From Pseudogymnoascus verrucosus (Eukaryota): 64,000 nucleotides of DNA. The stretch lies in the NCBI GenBank assembly GCA_001662655.1, contig KV460217.1. One strand, 5' to 3'. This document shows positions 11,393-64,000 of this stretch, piece after piece; the first letter of the stretch is position 1, and the number at the start of each line of letters is the position of its first letter. The notes beneath the pieces are model-generated. The model searched no databases. It worked only from the letters and a program-made list of their open reading frames with translations, and had not been told where the DNA came from. Made by a program: the position numbers and the translations under genes.

Positions 11393-12080
11393 AGTTATTG
11401 TCTTTTAGAAAACTGATATGGGTAAGAATGTCAGATCGCCCATCGATTTACAGCGGAATGAACGTGGAACCCAGCTAGCTAGATGACAATTAGATCTAGC
11501 ATAGGGTTTATTATAAATGTACACTGACTCGCAACAGAAGTGGAAACCTCCAACCCGTCGACTTCAATTAATATGACGCAAAGTTCGGGTGCCAAGCCGC
11601 GGAGATCGGGATCGGAATATAAAAACTCCGAACTCCGCGGGTAGGTGCCGTACACTTGGGTGCTTATGAACGAGTTACGCTTTGGTGTCTTTTCATATTC
11701 GCTGCTACATCCTGTTACGTTTTGTTTCGGTATTGTTGTTGCTGTACCGGTTCAGCTAGAGTCTATCGCTGTGTACACCTAATTCACTTGCATACACCCC
11801 ATTATATCTTTGTAGTATGGTTTTGCTACTATAACAACTAATTCACCATCGCGGTAGTTGAGCTTCATGTCATATCATCCATTAGGTCGTCGCGCTCCTC
11901 CGATCTCCCCGAACATGTCTTAGTCTAATCAAACTTAATTTCCATTGTCTTTTGCTATAAAGTCACAGCTCGTTCTTGAGGAGTACTAAATCATAATTCC
12001 ATCCTTTCACAGCATCCTTTCGCAGCAATCCATCAACCCATTTCCAAAGCACATCATCAATCTTCGACACAGCTACAACA

Positions 12081-12905: not shown

Positions 12906-12936
12906 AGAACTAAAAGCATCTTTTCTCTAATAACTT

Positions 12937-14120
12937 CTACCGTCTTATGATCACTCTCATACCCAGGCTCCCTTCTCTCACGTACGGTGTCACATGGTCT
13001 GCGACCATTTCCACATCATCCTTGGTAGTCTCGAAAAGCTCGAATGTTGAACCTGTCTGTTTTCCCGTTCCATCATAACTGTCGTATTTCCTGAAGATAC
13101 TAGCGAGTATTGTAAACAGCTCGGAATATGCCAATGGCATCTGCGAACAATCAGCGAGAACCACGTATGATGAAAATGTGACCTACACCTAGACATCTTG
13201 GAGACCCACGTGAGAAGGCAAGTTGATATCTATCGAGCCTTAGGTTGTTGAGGAATCTTTCAGGTCGGAAGACGGAAGGTAAAGGGTAGATGTCCTCGTT
13301 CCTACTTAGTAGAGGTGCAGTCACTCCCACGGGTATCTTGTTTTGTCAGCGAATTTGTACCCCGTACCTTGAACAAACCTTGACTCACTCCTTTAGGAAT
13401 CAACCATTTCATCCCAGTCTTCCTATCTTCATACAGCAGGTCCTCATCTAGCGCAACTCTTTCTTGGCGAATACTAGCGCCGGGATGCAGACGAATTCCT
13501 AATTTGACTATGGCTGTCAAGAAGGGCAGTGCTTCTAACTTATTTAACGGGGGCATATCTTGAGGGTCTGGAATTGCGCTGATCAACTCATCTCTGAGTT
13601 TCTTCAATATCCTTGGGTTTGAAAGCAGGTGGTAAGTAGTGTAAGCAAGGGTACTTGCAGTTGTGTCTGTCCTACCACCTAGGAGAACGCTCGCCTGGTC
13701 CGCTAACCGCTTGTCGCTCTTTTCTGCTTCGGGAAGATTTTGGTTCCGAATGAGACTATGGAATATGGTTTTGCTCAGACTATCGGTTTTCAACTCGTTC
13801 TTTGTCTCTTCACGGACAACTGAAATTCTGCTGTCAATGGTCTATGTAATTTAATTTAGTGCTGAGATTATTGTTTAAAGGAAGTGGTGCTGACTTTCAT
13901 GAGGGTCAGAAAGACCTCGATTTCTGGCATAAGCATTACAACAAGCCGTTGCGGAAGTGCAGTAATGGTTGGAATTAGCCATGGATTCCAGGACGCGAAA
14001 TGATATCCCTTCCCTAAGTCATGTTGGGCCGAGAAAAATGGCTCATTGAGATCTTCTTCATCCAGATTGTTATAACTTTCGCCAAAACAGTAGCCCAAGA
14101 TAATGTCGGAGGTCGTGGCA
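12937..14120 (-). pseudogene. 5'-truncated cytochrome P450
   Basis: FRPERF and heme motif FSRGSPRCLG are present. ExxR reads KLGIR and the I-helix reads GGRTDTT. The N-terminal exons are absent, replaced by an AT-rich tract from about 14120. Confidence 0.8.
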
Positions 14121-17231: not shown

Positions 17232-18710
17232 ATAGTACTCTAGGCGTGGTTTTTGCTACGGGTTTCCCACGCCGCATGCGCAAATGCGGGAGTTGTCCTT
17301 ATTCAGAAAAAAACCCCAAAAACCCAGTTGAAATGCTATTATCCACGTCCCTTTGTGATTTTACTATGGCAATGTGATCAATTCCGACCTTGTCATCATA
17401 TGCCCTAAATTGAATATATATTTGATGCCCATGCCGTCTTCCTCCGAACGCACAACATCAAAGGCTCTCTATCACTAGATTTAACCTAGCAAACAAGACA
17501 AAAACAGCTCCCACCCATCCAAGACAGGTACTATCAAATCCTCCCCAAGATCCACCCAAACTACCCCGTCTTACATCGTACAACCCCTACGCTCAACGCC
17601 GATCTTTGCCCTTACCTATATAAAACGGTCATCTCCCGCATTACCACCAAGAATCAGCCTCCAATGCCTCATCGGCATTGTGATAGATCACCAGCGAGAT
17701 CCGAGACATTACCGTCATAGTATTTCAGCCGCCATCCGCTCCAAACAAGACTGTCATAGCCCCATGTTTTCCTCGTCGCACCGCCAACTAGAGCTAATTC
17801 CTGTTGGCTTTGCGGCTTGTGTTGTGACCGAGATGGATATAGTAAAATATTTAACTCACCCACAGCGTTTTCAAACCCCCAATCAAAACGTAGGAACTTA
17901 ATGGCTTAGGGCAATAATTAATAAGCTATTTACTTAAAAATAAAACAAGAGAAATAAATCCTATCGCGGTAAATTCCCGGTATCAACCCCCAGGTATCCA
18001 TACCCCCCCCCCCCCCCCAAAAAAAAAGACACCTAGGTAGCACCAGTCTCATCAACCCCGTGTAATACAAGCTTTCAACCCCACGACAATATCCACACCT
18101 TCACCCCCCTCCTCGCCCAAAACCACACCATCCCCCATCAAACCCAGGCACCACGATCTCAACCCCCCCCCCGATCCCGATCACCCCACACCCACCCACA
18201 CCGTCATCCTCCTACAAACCCGGCTCAAAAAACCAACCCCAAAGCAACGAATGAAGTGCTTAATTCTTAGATTGTACTATATCTCAACCAGCTTGCTTCG
18301 TTATAGAGAAAGTGCTAATATGGAATGAAAAGTGTGGTGCAGGAATAAAACAGATTCCACCATTATGTAGGGAGGGACAGGGAAATGGGGGAGTACAAAG
18401 AAGGAAGAGATGCCGGCAGTTATATACTTCTGCCATCTTTCTCCTTCATTGAAAACCAACAGTAAAGATTACAATCCGCGAATTCCAAAGCACAAAATCC
18501 CCTCTTCAAATAAACACCACCGTACGCCCCCCTCCCCTCCTTTACCACCCCGCAAGCAACCCCTATAGCCCCCCAACTAACAGCCCTCACCCCAGACCAC
18601 CACCCAAAAATTAANNTTAACACTCACCGGATTCGGCCCCTTCGGCTGCCCATCAACCTTCTTCTTCTTCACCTCCCCCACCCCCTCCTCCCCCTCCTCC
18701 CTCTGCCTCT

Positions 18711-19151: not shown

Positions 19152-21305
19152 TTATGCGACTAAAATCATATGACATTTTCTCTTGGCTGCCTCCTCATAG
19201 GCACAATTCAGACAGCAATCCGCCTGTAATAGTGTAGGTCGGCCACGGCAACAGGCAAACAGCTGCGCAACTGGGTTTCGCGAAACCTGCACAATCGCAA
19301 GCTTCCCCTTGCTTGCCAGGGGGGATGCGACAGACGTCGTGAACACGGCATCTTCGTGCTGTGATTCCAAGGGCGTATCTGGTGGGTGATCGCATGGCTC
19401 TGTCTCGCGAACTGCCCATGAAGCAATGATTGTATGCCCAAGTACGAGATGCGCAATTTCGCCTCCTACACGAATAGTCGAGGTTAATTCAAGGGAGGAA
19501 ATACTCTCTACTATGGTCATCTCCAAACTAGAGTGTTCTCCAATACTAGACGGGGTTATTTGCTGGCCCTGGTGTATATTATTTTCCGCATCTGGCCTAA
19601 CTGGCCCAACGGCCTTGAGCGACGCGTGGTATCGACCATTAAAAACAAGCTGGCCTTCCATTAAAATAAATGGGGCATTCATTTTATTTGGAAGTTGAGG
19701 CGTTTGAAGTGCTGCCATGTAGACTGTGCTCGAATTCGAACTACCAGCAACATAATTACCAGCAAAATCCCGGTTCGTCCTGGTACAGGTCGTCATTATA
19801 TAGCGGTGGATGACTTCGCAATAGTCATACTTATTATTTTCAGCATTCTTAGCATAAAAATCTTGCGTCTGATCCAGAAGATCTAGTATAATGTTTAGAT
19901 ATGCCGATCGAAACGTGAGCGCAATTGGATTTGGAATGGTTGCACAATCGTCTGCATCAACAAATAAACAAGCGAATCCACAACTAATAGCCATTCCAAC
20001 CGCACTCCACAATCGATAGAGTGAGCAAGACCAATTCCTGCTGAGATGGTCATGAAACTGCCAGCCAAGTTCCGTAGAACATCGCGTCTGTGTTATGCAA
20101 CTGCAGGAGACTGTGGGTGTCGCCTCATCGAATGCCAGTACTAAATCATGGAATGCGCTCTCCACAGATGATGGAGGCTTAGCCCAACCTGGTGGTATTC
20201 TCCAGAGCTTCTGGCAGATTTTGTCTATACGCTCATGAGGATAGGGCCCCAATAATTTGATGGCACCATGACCTCTTCGGAAGCCCGTTGTATCAGATCG
20301 ATGGTCAACACCGTCCAATTTTTTGGCCAACGGCTCTAGCGTGGCGCAACACGCAATCCGGAGAGGCTCGGGGCATATCATTCCGTCTTCCATAAACATA
20401 ACTTGCAGCATATCCGCCATGCATCCAGTCCATTTGTAGCAGTACCCCTCATTGGGAGGTGTCTTGATGCCTTCTACTATCGGGAGAATGGGGACTGTTT
20501 TGTGGATCTGTAGTTTCGACTCTATTTGAAAGTTTACGAACCCATCGGAGTCCGTAAACTCAACCAGTATTGACTTCCGTAGCCCCTCAAAGACTATCAC
20601 ATTCTCCATGGTGACAAACGCATCTTCGGGAAACATTATCGTGACAATCGCCAAGATAAGCCCCATCGACTGAGAGCCACGAATACGAACAATGATGGAT
20701 TCTTCTCGGATGGCCCGTGTAATGGCATGCAACAGTTCCGCCATGGATTCTGGTGTAATCTTGTCCAAAAAGTTACCTGGTACAGGTTTTCCAAAGTGTT
20801 TGTAGGCGTCATAAACCCTTACGACCTGGGAGGCGAGAATGTTGCCGAATCCCAGCACTTCAAGTTTAGAACTGAGAGTCCTGGCGACCTTGACGAGCTG
20901 TGATGGGCTTGATATTGCAACGGTTTGGGACAGCATGGCTTTGCTCAGCCCAGAAAGTAGTCGTCCTGTATTAAACTCATCGTAGAGATTTAGTATGCAC
21001 ATTGAAAGTAGTGAAATAGCCTGACCTCCCGCAGACTGGGCCATCAACGACGCCGAATCGCCTTTCCGCCAGCCAACGAGTAGACCGAGCCGATCCAGCC
21101 GAGTGCTTTTGCATCGCTGAAGGAGATCTGGGACCTGGAGAGCGTATTGCCCGTTGATATGAAAAAGAGAGCCCAAGTTCTCCATCTGAACCATGGCCAG
21201 TGGTGTCACGTCGTCAGCAGACAGGGCTGAGAGGACTGGTGCGAATGCTGCGAGTCCATTGAGCGTGAGACCGCCGACGTCAACTTGTGGCGCGACTTGA
21301 GACAT
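19152..21305 (-). CDS. Hypothetical protein, 717 aa, intronless, Cys-rich C-terminus (CCLNC)
   Basis: Long uninterrupted ORF with globular-protein composition; no family recognised. Confidence 0.8.
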   Translation of the reverse strand: MSQVAPQVDVGGLTLNGLAAFAPVLSALSADDVTPLAMVQMENLGSLFHINGQYALQVPDLLQRCKSTRLDRLGLLVGWRKGDSASLMAQSAGGQAISLLSMCILNLYDEFNTGRLLSGLSKAMLSQTVAISSPSQLVKVARTLSSKLEVLGFGNILASQVVRVYDAYKHFGKPVPGNFLDKITPESMAELLHAITRAIREESIIVRIRGSQSMGLILAIVTIMFPEDAFVTMENVIVFEGLRKSILVEFTDSDGFVNFQIESKLQIHKTVPILPIVEGIKTPPNEGYCYKWTGCMADMLQVMFMEDGMICPEPLRIACCATLEPLAKKLDGVDHRSDTTGFRRGHGAIKLLGPYPHERIDKICQKLWRIPPGWAKPPSSVESAFHDLVLAFDEATPTVSCSCITQTRCSTELGWQFHDHLSRNWSCSLYRLWSAVGMAISCGFACLFVDADDCATIPNPIALTFRSAYLNIILDLLDQTQDFYAKNAENNKYDYCEVIHRYIMTTCTRTNRDFAGNYVAGSSNSSTVYMAALQTPQLPNKMNAPFILMEGQLVFNGRYHASLKAVGPVRPDAENNIHQGQQITPSSIGEHSSLEMTIVESISSLELTSTIRVGGEIAHLVLGHTIIASWAVRETEPCDHPPDTPLESQHEDAVFTTSVASPLASKGKLAIVQVSRNPVAQLFACCRGRPTLLQADCCLNCAYEEAAKRKCHMILVA

Positions 21306-22161
21306 TGTTGAGGTCTGAAGCTGAGACTTCGGCGTCGGCAGTTTTGTGGTTATCGTTCGACGATGCTGGAGACTGAACTCATGGATGTTAACCAGAGAAG
21401 GCTTGGCGATGCGAGGCTATGCACAATCGTCAAACATCAAGATGATTCGCTAGGTGGTGATATAGCCAAGCACTGGACTGTATATGCAGGTATGCCCAAC
21501 AGGGGCTCATCAGGCACTCCGCGGCTGTTGCCATCATACCAGGGGTGGCATCGTCAAGTAAATGGAAATTACAGAGGTGAACAGAGTGAGAAAGAAATCT
21601 GGGACTTCACCGTGTCCACGACAGCTGTCGACATTTGTGTAGTTGGCAAGTTTGTGAATGGAGAATATGGCGGGAAAGGCGAAGTTAAATGCCGTTCATA
21701 TGGCTATGGCAGGCACGGCTTCGTTCTTGCTGTGACAGGAGCACAGTTGAAGCCTCAGCCTCGCTCTTGCCATGAATGGTAGTAGTTTTGGCTTTGGTTG
21801 GGAAGGAGCGGTTGATATACGACACGACAACTTACTGTGGCAGGAGCGGGTTTACACCCTCGCGCTTGCTATAGATGGAAGGCAAGAGCGCCTGATACAC
21901 GACAGCCTACAGCGGCAGGAGCGCTTGACACCAGTCTAGCAGCGGCTATCTCATAGTCGCCTCATAGTGGTTCTATGTTGATGATGACAGATACCATCTG
22001 CGACTTACCTTATCTATTCTAGGAAAAACATGCTGTACTGTACAAAGTAGATATGTAAGTGGCACTCACTTGGGGGAGTATACCGTGAGAATCACGTGTT
22101 GTGTTGAGTGTATGGTGAAAATCACGTGTTGAACATAACACCTCGCCGAAAGGAAAGAACG

Positions 22162-24622: not shown

Positions 24623-27600
24623 ATGGTCACCACGGCGCGTCGTCGCGACCCCCGCGACGGCCGCACCCTGCGCATAGTAGATGAGTCCTTCTGGTCGCGG
24701 GAGCGGGACATGCTATCTTTGAGGCTGTCGCTGCTGCACGACTTTCTCTCTGCGAAAGGTAATGTAAAAAATCAGCGCCTTTCATTCATTCATCACTACT
24801 ATTCACATCTATCTACATCTGCGCTCCTCTCTTTCACTTCTGGTCCCGTGACTTGCTCCCTTATTGCACCCTTGTTACACCTCCTACCACTGAGAGGGGA
24901 TATATATATAGATCAAGCTAACCCCAGACAGGTCTTACAAGCGATATCCAGCTCCACGCCGAGGAGTGCAGATATCTAGAGTATCAGATCCAGAGTATCC
25001 ACGCCTCGCTCGCTCGCACTGGTACATCCCTCCCGTCTCCCCTACCCTTCTCACCAGCTCAGTCGACAAGATCGATCACGTGACTTCCATCACCCACCCC
25101 CTTGACCATCACCAGTAACTGATACATTGATACTAACACCCCCTCCAGGCGACGACACCGAAGCCCGGGACGCCCTCGACCACCGCCTCCAATCCGAGCC
25201 CTCCACCGACCGCACCGAGCGCTTCAAAGACTGGCTCGCCAACAACCAAGAATTCAAAACCCTCATGCTCTCCCACCAGACCGAAGGCGCGCGGGATGGG
25301 GACGCAGTGGACGGCGACGGAGCAGCAGCAGTTGTGGTGGGGGGGAAGTACAAGTGCTGTGAGTTGGGGTGTAAACATTACGTTTATGGGTTTGAGACTG
25401 TGGAGGCGCTGAGACGGCATATGGGACTGCATGAGGATGCGGAGGAGGCGAGGAGGGAGGATGTGGTGAGGAGGAGGACGTCGGGGATGAGTCTTGAGGA
25501 TGTTACTTCTGGGGGACTTGGGAGTAGGGAGGGCTCGAGTGAGGGGGAGAGGATGGGGGTTAATGGACGCAAGGGCAGTGTGGTGGGGATGGGGAATGGG
25601 AATGGGTTTGGGGTGATGCCGCCAAGTCCGTTTTCGAAGAGGACGTCGTTATTGCCGACCCCGGAGGCGGAGGGGAGGAGGAGAGGGGGAGGGAGGTTGA
25701 GTTTGCCGGGGGGGCAAGGAGGGGTTGGGGGGGTGAGGACGGCGGGGCCGTGTTTGAGGTGTAAGGTTTTGAAGAAGAAGGTATGTTTTGTGATTCGAGG
25801 GGTTGGTGGGAGTGGGTGGGAGTGTGAAAAGGATGGGAGTGGGAAATGGATGAGAGTAGGATGGTTGCTGACTTGGACTTGCGTAGTGCGATTGCCAGAA
25901 CCCTTGTAAAGAGTGTCCGCAACAGGATGTCATGGCACCTGATCTGTGGAAAGCACTGGGTTGTTTCCACGGCCCGCTGACGGAGATGGTGAGGAAGTGC
26001 CTCCACGGTTCGTGCCCTTTTACACTCATCCCCCCCCCCCAAAAAAAAACTCTAAACCAACCCCACCAGGCTTCGAACAACCCTCCCACCCCTCAACCGG
26101 GCCCCCCACCACCACCGACGTCTTCTGGGCCGCCGAGCTCGACTACCTCCTAGCCTCCCACCCCGGCTTCGTCTCCCTCGACGACGAGTTCTGGGACTCG
26201 CGCCACAAGCTGTCGTCCCTCAATAGCGCGGATATCATGGATACGACGCCTGATCTGACCGATGCGGCGTATAAGCGGTTACTGCAGGAGTATGGGCCTG
26301 CAGTGGGGTTGTTGAAGACGACGGTGTTGGATAGGGCGTATTTGGGACGGACGGCTTATAATCCGTTTGCGCTGTTGAGGGTGGGGAGAGATGCTATGGA
26401 TGCTTGTGTATGTCCCCCTTTTTCCCCTTTTCCCCTTTTCACGTCACACTACCACCACCCCCCCCCCCCCCCCAAACTATAAAATACATCCCAACTAACA
26501 CACCCCCAGAACGACCCCTCAAGCTGGCACCTCTACACCCTCGCCACCACCCTCCTCCTAACCTCCATCCGCTACCGCCTCGCCCTCTCCTCTACCCCCC
26601 CCACCAACCCCCCCTCCCTCACAACCCCCCTAACAGCCTTCCTCCTCGCGTTCGACACCCGCTTCACGAACCGCAAAGAACTACCCCCCTCCGCCTGGCT
26701 CGCCGCCTTCCACAGCCTCTGTCTCTTCTCTATCACCAAGACGCTCCTGATCGACACCCCCGTCCCGCACCAATCGTCCCCTCATGACGCGGCGGCGAGA
26801 TTGGCGACCGCGCATAAAATTTTGGTGTCTGTGTTCGCGTGGTCTGCTAAGCTGTCTGCGTGGTGCCCGAAGGAGCCGCTTGAGCTCCGCGATCCGCTTC
26901 TGAGGGACTGGTCGCGCGATGCGAATCCGGCTGTGCAACCACCTATCCGTGATGCGCTGGTGGCAACGCAGAGGCTGGTTAACCGCGACGGCTGGGCAAA
27001 GAGCTGTATCCGCCACACCAAAGATTTCCTTCTCGGTCTCGGGGCGGGGAATGTAGAGGGCGGGTTCAATGGGTTCCTCGCTATGAGGTACGGTGGTGCT
27101 GAGGCGGGGTATAGAGGCGGAGATGGGTTTGCGCCGCCCGCGCAGAGGAGGAGAACGGATAGTGGTGCTGTTGCGACGGATAGTCCACCTGTTAAGTCGC
27201 CGTTGGCGGAGGATGTGGGACCGACTACTACTACGACGACGACGACGACGAGTGCCACGCCCGGACGGAGAGCGCCGTTGCCGCCGTATCCGCCTCCGGC
27301 TGCGTCGGCGGCGTGGAGGGTCGCGAGTCCGCCGAGTAGTGGGAAGAGTGAGGAGGAGAGGGAGAGGGAGTTGGCGAGTTATTATCGCAGGCCTCTTGCT
27401 GTTGGGGGTGTTGGGGAGGGAGGAGCGGGGGGAGGCGTAGTTACGGTTGCGGCGAGGATGCCATTACCCAGCGTAGCAGCGCGCGTTGGCAGTTCCGACG
27501 ACGGACGCGGCGCAGCGGGTGGTAGTCCAGCGAGCTCAGTGGATAAGCGACCCAAGAGGAGGGAGTTAAGCAAGGAGCAGCGCGAGCATGCTGCTGCGGT

Positions 27601-27820
27601 GCGTAGGCTGGGGGCGTGCGGGGAGTGCAAGGCGAGGAAGGTGAAGTGTAGTCCTAGTCATCATCGGGGGAGTCCGGGGGTGGGGGGAGGGGGGAGGAGG
27701 AGTGGGAGTCCGGGGCCGACGAGCCCGAGGACGACGGGGTCGGGGGGGAGTAGTAGTAGTCCTGGCAGGGGGGGTGGGGGGAGTGTTGGGCCGATTGTGA
27801 GGAAGAGGAAGTCTGAGTGA
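24623..27820 (+). CDS. Multi-zinc-domain transcription factor (C2H2-like + Zn2Cys6-like + C-terminal CxxC-x6-C motif)
   Basis: The first exons join in phase (AAA G|GT CTT; ACT G|GC GAC). Motifs: YKCCELGC..GF...EALRRHMGLH; CLRCKVLKKK|CDCQNPCKEC..LWKALGC; RRLGACGECKARKVKC; terminal RKRK. Confidence 0.8.
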
Positions 27821-51486: not shown

Positions 51487-53467
51487 TCAAACCTCTACAT
51501 TCCGTTCCTTCCGTTCTTCCTTCACTTCTACCACCTCCGTCTCAACCCCCGAATGCACTTTCATCCTCTCCATCCCAACCGCATTCCTCTCCCACGACGC
51601 ACATGCAACCAGCACCCCTAGCCCAGCAACCCCAGTAAGCGCCGTCATCTGCACCCTAAACACTTTTGCATACACCGCCCGCACCATAGCCAGCACATCG
51701 GGTTCAAATGTCAACGCTCCTAACGGACTTCGATGCAGCGCCTCCATCTGCGCATCCGAGAGAAAACCCCCTAAAGCAGACTCGGAACGGGCGTTAAACA
51801 GCGCTGTAGCAATAGTGAGTCCGATGAAGCCACCCAGTGGACGCAGTTGCGCCGTTGCGCCCTGCGTGGCCGCGATCTCGCCTACCTCCGAGTTTAGGGT
51901 GACTATTAGCGTACCGGCTGAGAGGCACATTCCAACGCCGATTCCGAGGAGAACTTCTACGCCGTACAGGTAATGTGGGATGCTCAATGTGTCGGGGATG
52001 GTGGTTAGGAGGCCGAGGGCAAGGAGTTGGAGACTAGAGCCGCCTATGAGGGTTGGGGAGGTGAGGTTGCGGCCGGAGGAGATTGCGCCGCCGACGAAGG
52101 AGCCAAGGCCGGTGGCGGCGGCGAGGGGGAGGAGAGAGAGTCCTGCCTGTAGTGGGGAGGACCCGTTGACGAGCTGGAAGCGTTCGGGGAGGAGGATGGT
52201 GGCTGTTATCAAGGGGAAGCCGGTGCAGAATATGGAGCTGGTGGTATCTGGTTAGTTCATGGCAATGCCAGAGTAAAAAGGAGTGGGAGATGAGCATACC
52301 AGAAAGCGGCAGCCATGACGCGGCGCTTGAGAATGTGCATTGGGAATATGGGTTCGATATTCGACCAGGAACGCGTGCCAAGGAAGCCTTCCCACGAAAA
52401 AAATGCGACCCAGAACACGCCCGACAGTACGAGGCAGGTGACAATAACCGCCTCTCCCCAGGAACGTCCTCCCGTCGTCGCCCTCTGCAGGCCATATACT
52501 AAGCATACCGAGCCTCCCATCATGAACAGTACACCGACAAAGTCGATACTCAGAAACGTACGCCATTTGCCGCTATCAGAAGTCTTCGCGCTAGCCGGCC
52601 AGATGAAGAAGATAGACGCCATGGCGATTACGGAAAATGGTAGGTTCATATAGAAAATCCACCTCCAAGTCGATTGATTCGATATCGCACCACCCAATAT
52701 AGGACCTAGCACTCCCGACCCGCCGACAGTGAGTCCGATCCACGCCGCGCCGGCCGCGAACTTCGATGGATTCAGAACCTCAGCGATCATGACCATTCCC
52801 ATGGAGTAAAGTCCCGCGCCGCCGAGGCCCTGGAAGGCACGGAAAACGATGAGCTGGCGGATCGTGTGTGAGAGGGCGCAGGCGAGCGAGAAGACCATGA
52901 AGAGCGCCCAGGAGACAAGCATAATGGTTTTACGGCCGTATATATCGCTTAGTCGCGCGATGGCCATTGCGAAACCTGGAAGTGTTAGGGGGCACGAGAC
53001 AATGATGGGAGGGCGACTTACTCATATATGTCAAGAGATAGGCCAGGACGATCCATGGCGATAGCCAAAAGCTTCCGAGCTCCTCTACGATACTGACCAG
53101 CGCCGTCCCTATGATAGTTGTGTCCAGAGTCGAGAAAAACACCCCAACAAAGATACTAGGGCATAAGGTTAGCAGTGAAGAAGATTTGAGTTATCCTGGC
53201 GCGAGGAACGTACCCTGCCAGTGCAACATTCCTCCTCCATGGTTCCACATGAGGCCATGGCACAGCATGTTTGTTAGCCGTACTCGTGGCCACGACGTGA
53301 CTCTGGATGTCTTTCTCGGGTTCGGATCCGACGCAAGGGACCACTGTCACAGACGTTGCCGTAATATCCATTTCGGGGCTCTTGGGTGCTTGGAGGTCAA
53401 TATTGCTCGCCCTTTGCGACTCGAATTCCTTGGGGGAAACGAGACTATCCGGGTTGCTACTAGACAT
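51487..53467 (-). CDS. MFS drug:H+ antiporter (14-TMS, DHA2-type)
   Basis: LDTTIIGTAL, WIVLAYLL, LSDIYGRK, RAFQGLGGAG, GPILGGAI..WRWIFYMNLP and LPERFQLV; multi-exon. Confidence 0.9.
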
Positions 53468-54935
53468 TGCGGCGGCGAGTTGGGGTGCCGATATAAGGTT
53501 TGCCCTCTACTATGTGGCTCTACGCCTGGGAAAGGGACAGGATCCTCGAGCGGAGCTGGGTGATGTGGTAATATATGCGAACAGGAGATCGGTCCCTAAA
53601 TATCAACTCCAGTCACTGACAAAGACTCGGTGAACGTCTCTGGTAGCATCAATGGCTTCCCAGGATATGTAAGGGCTGGCTTCTCCTTTCCTCATACAGC
53701 AAGCGCAGTTCATTGGTATTACGGCCGTAGCTCGAAGTTTATATGCCAGGGCGAGTCCAACGCACGTATAGTCTGCTCCAACGTACGTATAGCCTGCATG
53801 CCGATCAAGCTGCCCGCCAGTCGATTTCAAACAGTGGGGAATACAGCACGGAAAAAGAAGTGGAAGCTGCCTTACTTCCACATATATATTTGATGGAGTA
53901 GTCGAATCGTCGACGACGTTGAAAAAAGGTCAACCTGTCCCCCTAACCGAAACTAGAGGGCACACTCTAAGTAATAACCGACCTCTAGCACTATACCATC
54001 GGGCCACACTATCCCGTCGTCCTTTGTACTGGGATGAAGCAGCGGGCACTATCGAGGCCGCTGTGGGGCTGTCAGAAAGTGACATTTGCGTCACCTCCTA
54101 GGGTATTGGCTTGCGTCGACCAAACGGCCTCCAGGAACCCTTACTTCAGGCTTCAGTCCCTAGCTTGTTGCGGCTATATTAGACCATCCAGAAGTCCAAT
54201 CAAAGTCCTAAAGTAGACACGCGGCGAGCCAAGAAGGAAGAGAAGGATTGCAAGCCTAGAGATCCAAGTATAGGGCGTCGTCTGTGGCCTAATCCATCTG
54301 GCCCCAAATTACACTCTGCCCATCCATCCCGTGGCCTTCCCCAACGGCCATCCAAAAGCTTTCCCCCGCAGAGAATCACACATTAACCAGCCTCGGTCAT
54401 ATCTCCTAAAACAACACTGTCTGCCCTGGTCGTCTACAGAGCACATTTAGCCTCTTCACCGCGTACGCCACGGCCACGCCACGCCGGCGCGCAACCGAAC
54501 AGACGGAACGCGCGATTGGCCTTGTGGATGAAGAACATCAAAACGACGCCGATCCTCGGTTGCAGCGCTCAATCAAACGGACTGGGAAGCGAGATGACAG
54601 TCCTACGCGGTCAAGCGCGCTCCATTGGGGGATAAATGCTAGGGCCGGTGGCGCATGAGGCGCATGAGACGGGTGGAAACCGTCAAAGCATGATGGACAG
54701 TGCTTGACGCAGGTGAGTGGGGTTGACGAAGAGGCCAGAAGGGGAACTGGTAAGCGATGTGGTGAAGGTAAAGACGCCGGAGTGATGCCGGCGTATTACT
54801 GTGTTGTGCTTTCCCGCTGTAAATTACTCGTATTGTCACGTGAAATCCGACCGTTCCGATATAACACTAGGATTGTCATCTTTTCCCCGATGGGCTGACT
54901 TGTACCACATATACTGCACTGTATAACCCCAGAAC

Positions 54936-55867
54936 ATGTTGGCGCCAAGCACTGTGAAGACGCCGGTGAGGGCCAAGGTCGATCTGATAGCCTGGGATCC
55001 GGATTCCCCAGCCCATACCGAGAGGATGGTTCAGCATCGGATTGCATGCGGGTGGAAACAGGACTATATCGAAGGGTGGCGGGGTTTGCAGAGAGAGGGG
55101 AAGATGGGTCTTCAGTGGGTTGTGAGTTTCTCATTTTGTTTACGATGGGGTTTATAAGACCTAAAAAAAGCAATGCTTCTTCCGATTTTTACTTTTCGCC
55201 TGTTGAGATTGTAGCTATACAAATGCGAATATTGCGAGTGGTTGTATTTATGATATATAATTCTAACTACCAACGCAGGTTCTAGCAGAGGACGACCCAG
55301 AGAAGGAAACCAAGCTCGCCCAGCACCTACTGAAGTACCCCGAAGACGCCACACCCATTCTTGACACCGCCACCTCCCTGGCTGGTAAGCCACGATTACC
55401 CTCTTCGCGTTCATTCGTCCCCGTGGGCCATATCTCTCTCGACTCAGAAAGCCCCAATCCTGGCCAAGCAGATGCCTCACAAGGACTCTACTGCATCACT
55501 ACTCTCTACATCTCCCGCGCTATTCATGGAGGTGGGTTAGGCCGTGCTGCCCTGGACGCCGTCGAGAGCCAGGCCATCAACGAGCCGTTGTGTGCGAAGA
55601 TATTGTCTCTTGATACTCTGGCAAACAGCAGTTGGAATAGAACAGATATATGGGAGGAGATGGGCCAGAAGAAGCCTGAGGTATTTGAGCTACCCTCAAT
55701 GAAATCGAAAGTGGTGAGCTAATTGCAGACAGATGTCGGCTGAGGATTGGTATGAGAGATGTGGATATAAGGCCTGGAGATACAACGAAGGCCATATCCA
55801 GCACCGGACCGACGATGGTAGAGTTTGGCCCCTAGACGGCGTCTTTATGAAGAAAACGGTTGTATGA
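54936..55867 (+). CDS. GNAT-fold acetyltransferase-like protein
   Basis: 3 exons; VGHISLD, LYISRAIHGGGLGRAALDAVE (acetyl-CoA motif A-like), WYERCGY and VFMKK*. Confidence 0.75.
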
Positions 55868-56091
55868 ATTTGAATTACGATCTCTTAATTCTAACTCATG
55901 CGATTGTTTGGCTTTGTGAAGTAGAAGGCGAATACATTTACCTCTATCATGTAGGTTCTCAAAGGGCAGATTTTGTGACGTGACGATATAGAAGCCAACC
56001 GATACAGTGCAGTCATCTGCGCGAATTTCACAGATTAAGATATCAATATGTTCGCCTCTGGCAAGTAATAAACTAACGCCTATCATACAAC

Positions 56092-57072
56092 CTACATAAG
56101 ACAAGTGTCATCTTTCACCCGATGCGCCGCCGCAAAATCAAATATCGCCTCATAACTCCGACACTCGTGTACATCGCCCCATCCATCGAAACCAGGTATT
56201 ACATCGCCATCCGCGTTTACCAGTGCCGTTTCCAGCGTTGTATCGCCCGTACACATGATCGCCTGACGCAGATAGTCGAAGCAGTGACCCAAGTTATTTT
56301 CCGCCGCTTGGTTTTCGCTCACGTCTCTGTCGCGACCGAAGGCGTCCCTGAGTATTGACTGTTCCGGTATTTAGTAAAATGTGGGAAACTGATAGACAGT
56401 ATAGCTAGGGGTGCGTTGAAGGGGAAGGAGGATTTGCCTTACCAGACAGTAGAGCTGGTGAAACATTGAGATGGAGTATATCTCTGTCGCCACTTCGGTG
56501 TTTGGGACCGGGAACCCCCCCCTTAAACCGTAGTTCCACGGTTTCTGAACCTCTACGAACCCTGCGCCAACTATAAGTCCAGTGTCGTTAGCACAAGCCC
56601 CTGAGCACCTCAAGACTACACCAGAGAATAGATCCCCACAGAGAGATACGCAACGAGAGAAAATCAATAGCATACGGGGAAACAACATGTCCCACACTGA
56701 CCGGTTCCCTGGTGTCCCCGACCCTGCATTGACAAACGCCTCATCCAGCCTGAATTTGACCATCTCCTTCGGTACTGGAGGTGTTTGTTAGCCTCTTTCC
56801 AACTCTTTTATGCACTTCACCGAGTGCCTTCAACCGTCGACAATGAACGAGAACACACTATTTCCAAAATAAGCCTCCGAGCGGACTGCCCCAGTTTCTA
56901 GGCTATCAGACATTGGGATATATGCCACGACGAGAAGGACGGTGAAGATGTAGAGGGCTGCTAAGGTGTAGTATCTCCGTTTCCATTTCGCGAGGGCGAT
57001 GCGGACGTCATCGGCGGATGCGAGGTAGTATTCTGTCTCATCATCTGCAGATGACAAAGGAACCTCTTTCAT
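56092..57072 (-). CDS. DUF3328/UstYa-family membrane-anchored oxidase with variant metal motifs
   Basis: 4 exons splice into an open frame: N-terminal TM helix, then YSISMFHQLYCL, NLGHCFDYLRQAIMCTGDTTLE and GWGDVHECRSY. Confidence 0.92.
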
Positions 57073-57430
57073 TTTGATTCGAGGATGTTAATGATATCTG
57101 ATGTGAACATATAAGTGTCAAATGTCCATGTGGTGGTCTGGACCATTAAATACTAAGCACTCTATATTTAGCCCGTTGTGGGGTTACCGTTTCTTTACGC
57201 CGCATGAGTCCTCGTATTCACCCGTCCCGTCTCAAACCAACAACGGTATTTTCGATGCATAATTTTTTCGTATTCAGCCGCTCTCAAAACAGTAATGGCA
57301 TCTGCGCCTTTTGCTATATCTAATGGCCTGTACAGGATAAGTCTACAATTTGTGTGCAGAAACGGACAACAAAATTGCTGCTGATCCGGCCCCTTGGTTC
57401 AGTCTTGAGGCATCACCAGGTAATACCACT

Positions 57431-59483
57431 TCACTTCAAAAGAAAGGTCTTTATCGCAACCCCTCTATCCCTCAGAGCATCGGCATCCAGCCTCAGATCC
57501 CAGTGAACCACCTCCCCCGTCATCACGTTCTGGAAATGCTCCACGAAAATCGGCTGCGAATGCTGCCACTCGCCCTGAACCCGAATCCAGCCCGGCGGCA
57601 GCGGGCCTAAGCGGGGATCTTCGCGAGTTGTTTCATTTGTAGCGTTGTTGGTGTAGTGCGGCTGAGGTTGAGGGTGATCACGGTCGTCTATCAACTTTAT
57701 CTTCCATCCGTCGGGAAGAGGGCTAAGGATAGATACAGAGTCACAGAGACTTGGTACCAAAGCACCTGTGATGACAACATAGGCGTCGTCACCGGCCGGC
57801 CGGAGGATCAATGAGGAGTTGCGTCCCAGTACAGTGGTGATCATATCGCCTGTCTCGTATTAATATATGGTGAGCAAGTTGGGAAGTTACACATGTTACG
57901 GAGCATTAAAACATACCAGCTCGGACCATCTCGCGGCCATCCCCGACCTTCCCAATCAGTCCGTTGTGGCTGACAATAAGGCTGTGGCCCTGGTTTCTTA
58001 CCTTAAGCCGTGTCCATAGGTTAACATCGAAGGGGCCATTCGAGTCTCCACCTCCTAATGCGGCGTCGAGCAGGTTGCGAACCTCTTGCTGGTCCCACAC
58101 GCTCGCATCGTCCGGGAGCCGGTCCTTGGTGAAGCAGTCGCACAGTATGGAGACAAGCTCATCGATCAAGTCTATATTGCAATCTTGTAGCCGTTTGGCA
58201 ACTGGCTTTAAATCTCTCAGCATCTGCAATAGCGCCGACAGCCTTGAAATGTCCTCGGGAATCCAGCCAGGCGTAAATATGCTTTCAACACTGCCACAGA
58301 CCAATCCATGCACTTCTAACATACCACCACCGAAGCATCGTGTCACTATTGATTGTTCTATGGGATTGTTCTATGGCGAGAATAGTATCCACGTCAAAGG
58401 CCGCTTTTATATTGGCTAACCAGTAACACTCATCGATCAACCCGACCACAGTAAGGGGAGCGATTTACGTCCGTACAGAGCCATAATTGCCCTGCGAACC
58501 GTTGCCCACGACCTCGCGGACTCCCCGCATATCATAACGCGATTTCGGTTCCCAAGCTGGATTTCCTGCCAAGACCAACGCTGTTGAAACCAAGCAAGCC
58601 TAAGCAAATCGACTACTCCGATCCATTCGACAATGGTAAATGGCGGTGCTGTGTTCTCCTTGACCCACTCCGGGTAAGTGGTCTGAGGGGTAGGGAAGCA
58701 GAAGTCATCCATAGTGTACTGGATCTCGCCCCCAAGCTTCGCCAGGGTCTCGAGACCAAGAGCAGCGCTGTCTCCTCGGTGGCTGAGCCACACGATGACG
58801 ACCGATGCTAGCGCATAAACTCGCCCAATACACTTAGCCTGCATGGCCTTCTCACTTTTGTTATTGTGGTCTATGCATATCATGTCGACCCAAAGCGTGC
58901 GTGTCCTATCTGTGAGGCGGAGTTGTCTGATGGCGTCAGCGAGGTCAAATTGCATCTCAATTTTACTGTGCTCTTCAAGAGCATTGGCTGCATTGACCAC
59001 CGTTATTTCAGCCTGCTGAGTTTTATCGCCCCACGTGGATGACAGCACCTCATATTCAGGCATGAATGTATCGTCTGGATAGTTTGGCAGTGGCGCATAC
59101 AGCATACGACTGACTCGGGGGTTTGGATGATGCCATGATGTTTCTCCCGTGCGAATTCCCCAGAACAGATACTTGCAATCTATCGTCTCAAAAACTCGCC
59201 ATCCGTCCAGCAACGTTTCTTGCAACTGGTTGATGGGCAACCTTTGGGTAGGAGCCGCGTCAGGCAGTTGTAACAAGGCGTGGTGGATCTCGATCTGGAG
59301 ATCGTCCTCGAACTGGCCTGGAAGTATTGTGAGAAGTCTTATTTCTTCTACGGTTTCCAGAGACTTATACTCGTACAGCTTCATCGCTGACAGTATCCCA
59401 CGAGTATTGGCCATGATGTGTGGTGTATATGTGAATATGCCGGATGATGCCTCTGCCTCGAGAAGCCAGAAGGCAGAAGCCAC
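57431..59483 (-). pseudogene. HET-domain protein with WW-like modules, probably disrupted
   Basis: EIRLL, YEVLSSTWG, LWVDMICID, RVYALASVVIVWL and WFQQRWSWQEI. The frame breaks at about 58437 near a 13-bp tandem duplication, and the usual DxRD/PSWVPDW segment is not seen. Confidence 0.75.
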
Positions 59484-60078
59484 AAGCCGCTACTCGTAAC
59501 TAATATGCATCAGTACTAATAATACTCGTAGCCAATAGTCTATATTGGGGAGCTTACACTATCTCGCCTTCAAATTAATAGACCGAGGTCGGATGTTGGA
59601 GCTTTTATTAGCACGAAGTTGCAAACACAAAACAAGTGAGACCCGAATACATTTATCAATTACCGTAGCTGTTGCAAGCTAAATTGTGCCCGCCTAACCT
59701 GCAACACTTAATAGTAAGATTTATCCATGTGATTTACTCGAGTGGTAGTAATAAAGTTTGTGGCTAACAACGTCCAGGGCCTTATAGGTTCTCAAACAGT
59801 GATTAAGCATTAAGTCTAGGCCTGGCAGTAGAGTCTTCACCTTCAGACTCACAGTCGCTGCCATAATTAAGTATACTAAGCTCCTAGGGCCTCGTCACAG
59901 ACTGCGGCTAGCAGATTAATTAGAGTCGTAGCTGTGAGCGCATTTGGCATCAAGCCCAGTCTCATGGCTTATGTAAGTTACCATAACCAATAGTTACAAA
60001 TATCGCTACAATGCCATCATCATGGAACACATGACAAAGAACATGGGAACTTAGAATCGTGGCAACTAAATCAATAAC

Positions 60079-61242
60079 ATGAAAAGCTTCTATACTGCCG
60101 TTTACCTCTTCACTGGTATCACTGCCGCTATCGCTACCCAGAAGAAGAACCTCATAATCGAAACAGACCTCTTCAGTGATGTCGAGTGAGCACCTGGGGC
60201 AATTCCCATATGTCCTTGAATACACCTCTGACAATCAAACAGTGATGCTGGTGCCCTGTTGCTTGCAGCAACTTCCCTGAACATAAATCTATTAGCTGTG
60301 AACATCAATCACCCATCGACCTACTCCGCCCTCGCCGCTTCAGCAATCTTAGCACACTATGGACATCCCAAGATCCCAATCGGAATCCGGCATCCGCTAA
60401 CAAATGCCACCTTCTTCGATAGCTGGTACTTTGCTCTTGGCGAGTACACCAGCAAAGTCGCCTTCCACTGGTCTGGCGGGTCCTTGCCCTGGGGACATGT
60501 CGAGGAGGCCTGGGATCCGGTGGCGCTGTACCGGAAGGTGCTGAGCGAGGCTGAGGATGGCAGCGTGACTATTGCATCAATTGGCTTCCTTGATAATGTG
60601 AGTTTTACGGCCTTATACAGCAGCCATGGTCTTCTAATTAGATGGCAGCTCTCAGGACTGCTGAACTCGACCGCTGACTCCTATTCCGACCTTAGCGGCC
60701 GTGATCTCATTGCCCACAAGGTTGCCGAGCTAGTCATTATGGGCGGCGGCTACCCGTCGGGGTACAGTTGGAACTTCTGGGGCTCGAATGGTAGTCTCGC
60801 CGCGCACGTTGTTAATACGTGGGAGGGACAGATGGTGTTTGTCGGCGACGACGTTGGCAAGGATGTCAAGTCGGGTGGGGAGCTTATGTCTGCAGGGCCA
60901 AAGACGGATCCAGTGCGGATGGCGTATATTTACTACTCATACTATGAACCGACGTCTTCGTGGGATCCGCTGGCTACTCTGTATGCCATTGGTGGGCTGG
61001 GGGAGTTGTTCAAATATGGAAATGAGTATGGATACAACCATGTCAACGCCAATGGGGCGAATCGATGGGTGTGGGATCGGAAAGTGCAGAACCAGTTCTT
61101 TCTGAGGTTGAAGGTTAGCAATGAAACAGCTGCGCAGGAGCTAGATCGGTTGTTTCTCAAAGGGGCATTGTCAGTCGTGGAACAGCATACAGCAGAAGCA
61201 CCACGAAGAAAGCATGTAGGTTCGGCACATACAGAGTTATAA
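60079..61242 (+). CDS. Inosine/uridine-preferring nucleoside hydrolase family protein, with signal peptide and C-terminal HTEL
   Basis: MKSFYTAVYLFTGITAAIA, IIETDLFSDVD|DAGAL, IASIGFLDN, LVIMGG..P...WNF and SWDP. Confidence 0.88.
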
Positions 61243-61493
61243 CTTTTTAGATAAAATTCTCTCTACAGATATATTTAACTAACACCTGAAACGCCCCCCA
61301 AGCTATCAATTTCAACCGGATCCCATCGTATGGTTACATCCAAAATACAAATCATATCTCGTCACTCCCTCCAAACCAAAGCATATATATAAAAGGGGCA
61401 CGAGTTCGGTTTCTTGCCAGATTACATACATTTAAAACTACTATGGTATCGCAGTGTAAACAATCCTAGACCCGCTGCATTCCTCGACTCTCT

Positions 61494-62665
61494 TTAACAC
61501 GCCGCGTTGGCGGCCGCGGTGGCAGGTGCGGCGGCGGCCGCCTTGTTGCCCTTGTGGTGAGGCTCGCGGGTCTCAATGTCACGGGCACAGGCAACATTGG
61601 CGTTGGTGGCAGCAGTAGCAGCAGCGCCGTTCTGTGCAGCAGCGCCGTTTGCAGCGGCGGCCTTGTTGCCCTTGTGATGGGGCTCGCGAGCCTCGATGTC
61701 GCGAGCACAAGCAACATTGGCGTTTGTGGCGGCAGCGGCGGCACCGTTGTTGCCCTTGTGGTGACGGGCCTCAATATCCTGGACGTCGCGAGCACAGGCT
61801 ACATTGGCGTTGGTGGCGGTGGTAGCGGCAGTGGCATCTTGAGCAGCAGCGCCATTTCCAGCGGCCGCCTTGTTGCCCTTGTGATGCGGCTCTGGGGAAC
61901 GGTCTTCAAGCTCGTCCTCATGGCGCGCAGCCGCCTGGACCTTCTTCCCTTTGTGATGCGGCTCGGGAGAACGGTCTTGAATGTCCTGGACCTTCTTCCC
62001 CTTGTGGTGCGGCTCTGGGGAGCGGTCTTGGATGTCCTGGACCTTCTTTCCCTTGTGATGCGGTTCGGGAGAGCGGTCTTGAATGTCCTGGACCTTCTTT
62101 CCCTTGTGATGAGGCTCGGGAGAGCGGTCTTCAAGCTCCTCTTCGTGGCGCGCGGCTGCCTGGACCTTCTTTCCCTTATGATGCGGTTCTGGGGAGCGGT
62201 CTTGGACTGCCTGGACCTTCTTTCCCTTGTGGTGAGGCTCGGGAGAGCGGTCTTGAATGTCCTGGGCCTTCTTTCCCTTGTGATGCGGNNNNNNNNNNNN
62301 NNNNNNNNNNNNNNNNNNNNNNNNNNNNNNNNNNNNNNNNNNNNNNNNNNNNNNNNNNNNNNCCTTCTTTCCCTTGTGATGCGGTTCTGGGGAGCGGTCT
62401 TGAACTGCTTGGACCTTCTTTCCCTTGTGGTGACGGGCCTCCAAGTCAATGGCTACACCGCGAGCGATAACTGCACCACCGCCCTGTGAGGTGTTAGTAT
62501 TTGTTGGATGAATGAGATCAAGTTCAGTTGTAGATGAGGTAATTATGAAGGATGAAGAAGACATACAATATGACGTCTAGCTAAGCCACCGCTAGCCACA
62601 TCCTGTCCGTTGATGAGAGGGGCAAGCGCCAAAAGGCCAAATGCCAAAAGAGTCGAGGTATGCAT
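61494..62665 (-). CDS. Secreted tandem-repeat peptide precursor (KEX2-processed repeat protein / RiPP-precursor-like) with HHKG cores
   Basis: Exon 1 (62665-62567) reads MHTSTLLAFGLLALAPLINGQDVASGGLARRHI; intron GTATGT..CTAAC..CAG (62566-62484). Exon 2 has 13 visible HHKG[KN][KN] repeats and a 74-N gap (62289-62362). Confidence 0.9.
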
Positions 62666-64000
62666 GCTGAATAAATATAAACGAAAGGCTGGCCAGCAGC
62701 TTTGAGCGAATAAGAAGAGAGGGAATGGAAGGGAAAAGAGAAGCGAAAAGAACAAAGCACAAGCGTCAAGCTGATGGAGAGAGAATTCAGATGAGAGCAC
62801 GAATACAAGAGCAGATTTGAGTCCTTTATGACTGATTCCTTGGCCCGCGTAGACTGGATGTCGATGGGATGAGAAAACACGCTAAGTCTTCGCGAGGCGC
62901 TCTGGGGAAGGGGAAAGGGAGGTTGTTCGGGCCATGGTGGAGTTCATGATAGTCTCAGAAGGTGTTCCAAGACCGTTGCACCAGGTGCCCAAGCGTTGAT
63001 GTCTCTTTTTGAGAGTATTCCCAGTATGTTCGTAGTGGCATTCTCGCATGGGTGAGAAATGCCGCAGTCTATCATGGCCCGTCGAGGAAAGATGAGCCGC
63101 AAGCGACAGACCTCGCCTGTGTTCCAGGCCAGGGCGGGTTTCGCCATGGCGTCGAGAAAGCTTGAGTGCCCTATAAACAGCAGTCACGAGTGATACAGAT
63201 CGGCCAGACCCCACTGTCTGCCGCCAGCCGTTGGTGGGATAAATGATGGGGTTCAAACAAACCAGCGCCGAGACAACTCACGTCGGCGCGTGGTGCCAAG
63301 ATGCCATCCAATGGAGGGTTATCTGCTGGCTGGAGCAGTTTCACAGTCCGGGGAAAGTTTCCTGGGTCTGTATAGAGAATAGCCCGTATGGGAGAGCCCG
63401 TATGTGGAGCGATGTACGAAGTAGCATGGTTTGGTGATGTTTGAGCCCGCCGCGCATAGACTTTCCCCACCCTTCTCCACCAAGTGTCGGAGTTCCAGTA
63501 TCAGAATCCCAGGGCGACGGTGATTGAGGCTCTCATAAAGATAAAAAATGGATTTTTGTGCTCTTTGTGCTTTTTATGAATTTTGCGATTGGTGGAAAAG
63601 GAGACATTGCAAGGTAGCTGCGACGCGACTTGTCTTGGTATCGCTTAATTGTGAGGAAAGGGGATCTCCAAGGGACTTGGCTCCGAAACATCTGGAGCAT
63701 CATCGACCACAACGTCAAACCAAGAGGCGACGCAATTGCTCAAATAGGACAATTTCCGATGCGCAAAGGGCCTATTGTGGTTCTACTCTGATATATTTCG
63801 GTATATTCTGGTATATACTCCAACGAACATGATACAGGACTCCCCTGGAACTCGGTGCCGTCGTAACCGCCATCCCTGATGCTTGAGCAGTGGCATCACG
63901 AGGTAGGCGTCTGAGTGCTAAGCATCTGCGATTTCCCTTGACCATGTCCAATCCCCCCCGCTGGAAATATTGAATATCTCCAAGTTGACCTTCATTTCTA

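Follow-up and report, generated by a model that had tools for sequence, protein, structure and literature searches.

Kex2-processed repeat proteins (KEPs) of fungi have been defined in two genome surveys (Le Marquer 2019, PMC6339444; Umemura 2020, PMC7329392). The first describes Ste13 signatures, which are X-Ala or X-Pro pairs that follow Kex2 sites. The second, whose pipeline takes repeats between the dibasic sites KR, KK, RK or RR only, reports that the abundant types G-3 and G-8 carry a di-histidine motif "accompanied by P" and have genes for DUF3328 proteins as neighbors. For G-8 (type ID 15), 45 entries are listed with DUF3328 and 4 without (45/49); the mean distance between KEP and DUF3328 genes is 3.09 genes, and pheromone KEPs almost never have such neighbors. 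Here, we report the analysis of a gene of this di-histidine kind in a 64,000-nucleotide stretch of DNA from Pseudogymnoascus verrucosus (GenBank assembly GCA_001662655.1, contig KV460217.1), which we refer to as the window. The gene lies on the minus strand at window positions 61494–62665, and consists of two exons. Its product has a signal peptide and a short pro-region, followed by 13 or more units headed by the motif His-His-Lys-Gly (HHKG). The best overall explanation, which we consider fairly likely to be correct, is that the secreted product is the precursor of several peptides and that the gene represents a dikaritin-like KEP of the di-histidine type.

Dikaritin precursors (UstA of ustiloxin, PhomA, and AprA) and GigA of the epichloecyclins share with the window gene the combination of a KEP precursor, a UstYa/DUF3328 gene located a few genes away, and short cores. 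The core of ustiloxin is a tetrapeptide that ends in Gly. The window gene differs from the dikaritin genes in that its core contains no Tyr, KR sites are absent, and the local UstYa protein lacks two copper ligands; neither a tyrosinase nor a methyltransferase was seen among window open reading frames (ORFs) of at least 80 amino acids. Precursors of yeast alpha-factor and of fungal alpha-type pheromones resemble the window gene in having a signal peptide, a pro-region, and tandem copies, and in the alpha-factor precursor the last copy ends at the mature C-terminus. However, the window protein has monobasic [LIV]xxR sites in place of KR and X-Pro in place of X-Ala, and its predicted peptides, unlike alpha-factor, are basic, His-headed, and devoid of Trp. 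Neither the window protein nor four relatives matched the Pfam family MF_alpha. Processing of alpha-type precursors by a kexin cut, Kex1 trimming, and Ste13 removal of X-Ala or X-Pro pairs (Le Marquer 2019, PMC6339444) is similar to the route proposed below. A third group, the Kex2-processed pro-domain (K2PP) effectors, shares LxxR junctions and disordered pro-regions with the window gene, and in vitro Kex2 cleaves the junctions of these effectors (Outram et al., bioRxiv 10.1101/2020.05.27.120113). In these effectors one pro-domain precedes a folded effector, whereas the window gene would encode a polyprotein of short peptides.

The repeat array of the window protein, which contains 13 HHKG motifs in exon 2, follows a strict pattern. 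An earlier note, made from the letters of the DNA alone, had claimed that every visible HHKG follows a monobasic [LIV]xxR site, either directly or after EP or SPEP. This holds for all 12 units that can be read, with zero, one, or two X-Pro pairs in between, and the six site types listed there (LEAR, VQDR, IQDR, LEDR, IEAR, and IETR) are correct. HHKG stands directly after Arg in two units (LEAR at 62421–62432 and IEAR at 61752–61763), after Arg-Glu-Pro in two (IEAR-EP and IETR-EP), and after Arg-SPEP in eight (VQDR twice, IQDR four times, and LEDR twice). The thirteenth HHKG lies directly behind a gap of 74 N that masks its upstream context and leaves P alone visible. With these 13 visible units, the array exceeds the three tandem repeats of at least eight residues that the KEP definition requires. 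With regard to dibasic separators, KK follows HHKG directly in 10 of the 13 units, ARR occurs once, and KR is absent; KK is located inside the units, whereas the conserved sites are monobasic [LIV]xxR. Exon 2 encodes no Tyr, Trp, or Phe. The last long unit ends in ...NAAC at the stop codon, and this type of unit is also found in the Mytilinidion and Lophium proteins.

Tandem Repeats Finder assigns periods of 51, 87, and 225 bases to the array. The 13 HHKG motifs are spelled in seven nucleotide versions and the eight Arg-SPEP motifs in six, with the amino acids unchanged. Together with the occurrence of the same grammar in three fungal classes, this synonymous variation at invariant residues shows that the pattern goes beyond freshly copied DNA. 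The copy number of the array is uncertain because of the 74-N gap and because RNA and DNA contigs have loose ends inside the array, where they branch into alternative continuations.

The best protein match to the window protein is its orthologue OBT59642.1 from Pseudogymnoascus sp. 24MN13 (98% identity). By a profile search and by scanning metagenome contigs, we found relatives in Mytilinidion, Lophium, Didymella, Pyrenophora, Colletotrichum (four species), Sporothrix, Cytospora (two), Pestalotiopsis, Seiridium, Truncatella, a Xylariaceae species, Pyricularia, and Phyllachora. The family spans three Pezizomycotina classes that were checked, namely Leotiomycetes, Dothideomycetes, and Sordariomycetes; the class placement of the remaining genera is one that we assume. 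A phmmer search with the short-unit region against 1.84 billion representatives returned 12 matches, four of which belong to the family (P0004, P0005, P0021, and P0022). The other eight (P0013–P0020) were dropped as unrelated repeat proteins that matched on composition. The Colletotrichum incanum protein P0023 matched the family profile with an E value of 2.7e-48, and an Atlas look-up of this protein gave scores of 0.77–0.83, under the level that the tool treats as meaningful. No Pfam family reached its cut-off in the window protein or in four relatives, and the precomputed Pfam entries were blank for all matches of the family search. Within Pseudogymnoascus, a paralogue (P0022/P0005) shares its signal peptide, its pro-region, and the opening EP-HHKGKK unit with the window protein; it then runs into a duplicated Thr/Gly/Cys-rich domain with no further HH units and carries no DUF3328 flag.

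To describe the grammar of the family, we used 26 sequences that comprised the window protein, 21 database proteins, and 4 metagenome loci. Left out of this set were P0003 (this gene as found in a different strain), P0005, P0006, and P0031 (paralogue copies or fragments), P0041 (exon 1 only), the cluster members P0008–P0010 and P0042–P0046, metagenome contig L003 (the same sequence as L002), and the eight unrelated phmmer matches. The set contains 120 His-His pairs. Two of these, one masked and the other at the start of a contig, do not allow assessment, which leaves 118. All 118 assessable pairs follow Arg plus zero (18), one (85), or two (15) X-Pro pairs, and a spacer of odd length or without Pro was found before none of them (0/118). 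The expectation that all spacer types converge on one N-terminus thus finds support across the family. P4 of the Arg site is Ile, Leu, or Val in 105 of 117 cases. Position 3 of the peptide is Lys in 77, Arg in 16, Ala in 16, and Gln in 11, and position 4 is Gly in 112 of 120. The general plan of a unit is a basic or neutral HH-peptide that ends in Arg, an acidic spacer that ends in [LIV]xxR, and the X-Pro pairs; the heads are conserved and the spacers are variable and acidic. A dibasic pair at positions 5 and 6, in contrast, occurs in no more than 58 of the 118 units of the family, and the four long units of the window protein read HHKGNK or HHKGNN. These numbers speak against a further proposal of the earlier note, according to which a cut at KK would release the tetrapeptide HHKG. 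C-terminal amidation, which the note had raised as speculative on account of a resemblance of G-K-K to the animal signal, was rejected because G-K-K is not conserved and because, to our knowledge, no amidating enzyme is known from fungi.

The C-termini of the relatives provide a second line of evidence. Proteins that end in an HH-peptide stop at, or just before, the position at which internal units have Arg. The protein encoded by contig L002 ends in HHKGKKQQ followed by the stop codon, as compared with HHKGKKQQR-D in its internal units; the Mytilinidion and Lophium proteins end in ...KACA, as compared with ...KACAR-D; and several other relatives end in ...GN or ...NN. This pattern follows the logic of alpha-factor-type precursors and would mark the HH-peptide, rather than the spacer, as the product.

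We propose the following processing route. Signal peptidase would cut after ...LING, after which a Golgi kexin would cut after ARR, after each [LIV]xxR, and after the Arg at the end of the peptide where one is present (AAAR or ACAR). A Kex1-type carboxypeptidase would trim the C-terminal Arg, and a Ste13-type dipeptidyl aminopeptidase would strip SP-EP or EP stepwise. The predicted products are short peptides that all have a free His-His-Lys-Gly head: 12-mers such as HHKGKKVQDIQD, 11-mers of sequence HHKGKKVQAAA, and Ala-rich peptides of 20–32 residues with one Cys. Small acidic spacer peptides would be by-products. The short units of the window protein have lost the inner Arg of the peptide end, so that their predicted products would keep a short acidic tail. 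Two precedents invoked in the earlier note are in print, namely cleavage of LxxR sites by Kex2 in pro-domain effectors (bioRxiv 10.1101/2020.05.27.120113) and removal of X-Ala and X-Pro pairs by Ste13-type enzymes (Le Marquer 2019, PMC6339444). The family grammar, taken together with the protein ends at Arg sites, supports kexin, carboxypeptidase, and Ste13-type processing to free His-His-x-Gly heads, and the predicted processing is well supported by comparison among relatives. We regard it as quite probable that the gene is a polyprotein precursor and as fairly likely that the mature N-terminus is His-His.

The published catalog places this precursor in a known context that the earlier note did not take into account, as it mentioned neither the KEP listing of the orthologue nor the link to the DUF3328/UstYa copper oxidases. 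In Table S2 of Umemura 2020 (PMC7329392), OBT59642.1 is assigned to type 0, that of stand-alone KEPs, and its 15 nearest genes include one for a DUF3328 protein. The C. incanum relatives KZL67495.1 and OHW91178.1 (P0023) are of type 15, which is G-8, and are flagged for DUF3328; the relatives from C. orbiculare and Cytospora leucostoma are of type 0 and are flagged as well. In total, 5 of the 6 family members found in this table carry the flag for DUF3328 "in vicinity", as compared with 22% of all KEPs; KUI60763 and ETS85740 were not found there. G-8 KEPs share with the window gene the signal peptide, tandem repeats, His-His with Pro, and DUF3328 nearby, and the genus list of G-8 overlaps that of the family (Pseudogymnoascus, Sporothrix, Colletotrichum, Pyricularia, and Pyrenophora). 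Under the typing rule of the survey (reciprocal BlastP, E < 1e-30, > 70% coverage), however, the orthologue is type 0, and its relatedness to G-8 members is visible at the profile level only. The precursor belongs to the catalogued di-histidine kind of KEP with UstYa linkage, and this kind itself is already in print. The examined parts of the survey do not describe the register of monobasic [LIV]xxR plus X-Pro, nor do they report a product for G-8. The examined supplements of the two KEP surveys contain none of the strings HHKG, PHHK, and HHRG, a search that did not extend to the logos in Figure 5 of Umemura 2020, and within the literature that was searched no paper was found that reports a product of a di-histidine KEP.

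DUF3328 proteins are lumenal, membrane-anchored, binuclear copper oxygenases whose activity depends on copper and O2, and the four His residues in HxxHC...HxxHC serve as their copper ligands (Huang et al. 2025, PMC12435403). A Pfam scan of window ORFs of at least 80 residues identified a single UstYa gene, which matched PF11807 at 56095–56370 with an E value of 6.5e-16. This gene is three genes away from the precursor and 4.4 kb from its 3' end, and the window peptides may for that reason be modified rather than plain. As in dikaritin loci, a UstYa gene lies within a few genes of the precursor, the orthologue is flagged for one, and the two genes are adjacent in metagenome contig L002. The last exon of the window UstYa is 100% identical to P0047, a Pseudogymnoascus protein of 235 residues. 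A search with this exon yielded 11 matches of 97 candidates, which were Pseudogymnoascus orthologues and three distant proteins only. The gene is adjoined by a GNAT acetyltransferase ORF (window 55267–55722, plus strand), whose Pfam match (E 1.9e-4) is marginally above the cut-off. Clusters of UstY plus GNAT (Clan R2), in which no precursor peptide was found, have been described in lichen fungi in a survey of 2025. A HET-domain gene (window 57431–59489, minus strand) is situated between UstYa and the precursor; in another Pseudogymnoascus strain, HET and UstYa are annotated as one protein of 966 residues (P0050), probably through an error in the gene model.

Gene order was compared with that of L002. 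This contig carries a positional orthologue with eight HHKGKKQQR units and an intron at the same codon position, and its gene order is ABC transporter, WSC, UstYa, precursor, MFS, PIG-P. The UstYa of L002 is canonical (HQLHC, and HLDHC after splicing); it is located upstream of the precursor in divergent orientation, and the two start codons are 1.3 kb apart. The order in the window is ABC, WSC, PIG-P, MFS, an 8.5-kb stretch (GNAT, the degenerate UstYa, HET, and a hydrolase-like gene), and the precursor. The block of PIG-P, MFS, and precursor is inverted relative to ABC and WSC, and approximately 8.5 kb (window 53000–61400) has no counterpart in the otherwise syntenic L002. This order is what inversion of the block from UstYa to PIG-P would give. 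On the basis of this synteny, a canonical UstYa counterpart is predicted to start at ~63,990, at the end of the window. Support for this prediction is limited to a comparison of the L002 intergenic region with the window by blastn, in which 275 bases around exon 1 and the 5' untranslated region aligned with 70.5% identity. Farther upstream, two matches that are weak but collinear (E 0.001 and 0.47) give a mere hint of conserved spacing. A tblastn search of the window with the L002 UstYa exons detected the degenerate UstYa only (~56.1–56.5 kb, 33% identity) and nothing convincing upstream of the precursor.

These observations lead to a model in which, within the secretory pathway, a UstYa copper oxidase would recognize or modify the His-His-x-Gly head. 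We propose this step with lower confidence than the proteolysis. Because relatives are nearly always linked to DUF3328/UstYa genes, the head is, at the level of the family, probably the part that the enzyme recognizes or modifies, and the product would on balance be a dikaritin-like ribosomally encoded peptide (RiPP) rather than a plain alpha-factor-like one. At the window locus itself such modification is possible, with somewhat less than even prospects. In the epichloecyclins, the DUF3328 protein GigB has been proposed to link Tyr to the N-terminal residue exposed by kexin (PMC10540207); like our model, this proposal has a DUF3328 enzyme act on an N-terminal residue, and it may be viewed as a precedent of sorts for UstYa acting on an exposed N-terminus. 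We consider metal binding rather unlikely to be the function of the peptides. That a free His-His end would bind metal is chemically reasonable, as Cu(II) is known to bind to Xaa-His at a free N-terminus, for example in Gly-His-Lys.

Several points weigh against processing and modification as outlined above. Every proteolytic step is read from sequence. P2 at the main sites is Asp, Ala, Thr, or Glu and not Lys or Arg, and an acidic P2 (IQDR, LEDR, and VQDR) is expected to be poor for kexin. The Kex2 pattern quoted by Outram et al. (bioRxiv 10.1101/2020.05.27.120113) has a basic P2, and another protease may cut these sites. Tyr is mandatory for cyclization in ustiloxin, phomopsin, and asperipin-2a (Umemura 2020, PMC7329392), and the core contains none that could be cross-linked. 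With respect to the local enzyme, its motifs HQLYC and NLGHC retain two of the four motif histidines, the replacements removing two of the four copper ligands, and substitution of a conserved His or Cys with Ala abolishes the activity of the DUF3328 protein CctR (PMC12435403). HET-domain and nucleoside-hydrolase-like genes separate this UstYa from the precursor, and its last exon is 33% identical to the UstYa of L002, while the neighboring WSC proteins are 68% identical. An orthologue of the window UstYa persists in P. destructans (P0052), yet none of the seven KEP rows of this species in Table S2 is flagged for DUF3328 (0/7), nor is the Pseudogymnoascus paralogue OBT41320.1.

One alternative is that the precursor is processed in the same manner to plain linear peptides with a cationic antimicrobial or metal-binding role, as the earlier note had proposed, the nearby UstYa being decayed or unrelated. 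The degenerate copper motifs and the two unrelated genes in between favor this alternative, as does the resemblance of the layout, basic peptide plus acidic spacer, to multi-copy antimicrobial precursors such as that of apidaecin; a free N-terminal Xaa-His would also suit a plain copper ligand. We nevertheless judge it unlikely, given the family-wide association with DUF3328, the canonical UstYa that adjoins the positional orthologue in L002, and the synteny that predicts a canonical counterpart just outside the window. A change of register is a separate matter. Kexin could cut at the dibasic KK to give a core of the form ...DRSPEPHHKG, in which an internal Pro-His-His would be modified by UstYa, with [LIV]xxR plus X-Pro serving as recognition sequence for the enzyme. 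The Umemura pipeline defines repeats between dibasic sites and picked up the orthologue in this way, its authors describe the di-histidine motifs as accompanied by Pro, and KK follows HHKG in most window units. Against this register stand the frequency of dibasic residues at positions 5 and 6 across the family, which is about half, the NK or NN of the long window units, the 18 of 118 units that have no Pro before HH, and the coincidence of the relatives' C-termini with Arg sites and not with KK. We consider it very unlikely.

An unprocessed protein, secreted or wall-associated, is in our view the most improbable of these alternatives. Such a disordered repeat protein might form a His/Lys-rich metal-binding or adhesive coat, with motifs that serve binding and not cleavage; its low complexity and the lack of a Pfam domain would fit, and the single Cys in each of the Ala/Thr-rich long units could form intermolecular disulfides. 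Against a binding function stand spacers that are strictly even-numbered X-Pro, the aliphatic P4 kept with Arg at P1 at 105 of 117 sites, variable acidic spacers next to conserved heads, and proteins that end at Arg sites. The translated protein has no hydrophobic C-terminal tail of the GPI type, and a GPI-anchored wall protein was rejected on this ground. The secreted, dikaritin-like polyprotein precursor remains the reading that we prefer.

Coordinates of the precursor gene, its repeat array, and the UstYa gene are collected in Table 1. The interval 61494–62483 given in the earlier note is a real open frame, but it corresponds to exon 2 only; the start codon and signal peptide are encoded by exon 1 (62567–62665). 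The predicted intron is spliced out in one contig from each of runs X1 and X2, which join 62482/3 to 62566/7 with GT..AG borders on the minus strand and thereby fix the end of exon 1; one contig of run X20 crosses the intron unspliced. Pieces seen in those of runs X5–X23 that have small word shares derive from repeats only, and no conclusion is drawn from them. The status of these runs as RNA is a guess of the search tool, and the spliced joints demonstrate that they contain transcript. The precursor gene is transcribed and spliced as predicted. Read by eye, exon 1 encodes a hydrophobic signal peptide that ends in ...LING, followed by QDVASGGLARR-HI. The first 56 residues of the spliced product are identical to those of P0003/OBT59642.1, which passed the SignalP-4.1 screen in the pipeline of Umemura 2020 (PMC7329392), and the window protein by this identity fits the KEP definition with respect to an N-terminal ER signal peptide.

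Table 1 Features of the precursor gene and the neighboring UstYa gene in the window.
Feature	Position	Strand	Description and basis
5' untranslated region, at least 249 bases	62666..62914	-	Spliced contig of run X1 reaches 62914
Exon 1	62567..62665	-	ATG at 62663-62665, signal peptide, and first part of pro-region up to dibasic ARR and H-I; read from sequence
Intron, 83 bases, phase 0	62484..62566	-	GTATGT...TACTAAC...CAG; spliced RNA contigs
Exon 2	61494..62483	-	Remaining pro-region, every repeat unit, stop codon at 61494-61496; open frame of 329 codons plus stop
Pro-region, second part	62433..62483	-	GGGAVIARGVAIDLEAR, ends in first [LIV]xxR site; layout conserved in relatives (alignment)
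Short units, at least 9 visible	61887..62432	-	HHKGKK + 6-7 residues + DR + SPEP (17 residues); two 24-residue units, HHKGKKVQAAAR + HE[ED]ELEDR + SPEP
Run of 74 N within repeat array	62289..62362	.	Frame equal on both sides
Long units, four	61497..61886	-	HHKGN[KN] + Ala/Thr/Asn-rich stretch with one Cys (NANVACAR) + D[IV]..E[AT]R (+EP)
UstYa/DUF3328 gene, four exons	56092..57072	-	Exons ~57072-56859, 56774-56676, 56570-56443, 56358-56092; Pfam PF11807

Di-histidine KEPs with DUF3328 neighbors were flagged by genome mining in 2020, and the present analysis adds a concrete predicted processing register: a free His-His-x-Gly N-terminus and defined C-termini, and hence exact peptide masses. Since work published in 2025 established the DUF3328 enzymes as copper oxidases, this putative substrate family, with an exposed His-His as its only invariant feature, is a good entry point to UstYa chemistry that does not depend on Tyr, or else to a copper ligand of peptide nature in fungi. 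A more far-reaching idea, which we hold to be improbable, is that His-His-x-Gly is the core of a histidine-based, UstYa-dependent class of fungal RiPPs distributed over at least three Pezizomycotina classes, in which the copper oxidase modifies the exposed His-His or His-His itself delivers or binds copper. In the case of a modification, the side chain of residue 3 could, for example, be cross-linked with an imidazole or with the amine of the N-terminus. If the idea is true, in either form, the dikaritin pathway would gain its first chemistry that does not depend on Tyr; if the products are plain peptides only, the gene is an ordinary, though neat, alpha-factor-like polyprotein.

Elsewhere in the window, open frames of 754 and 445 residues (19155–21416, minus strand, and 26483–27817, plus strand) have no Pfam match at E <= 1e-4, and a second run of N, 2 bases in length, occupies 18615–18616. 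Fragments of a long terminal repeat (LTR) retrotransposon with reverse transcriptase, RNase H, and a Tf2-type SH3 domain are spread over several frames at 3053–5938 (plus strand). At 10300–13841, the domain of a fungal transcription factor is found in close proximity to an alpha/beta-hydrolase and a fragment of a P450, and the three may represent a small metabolic cluster.

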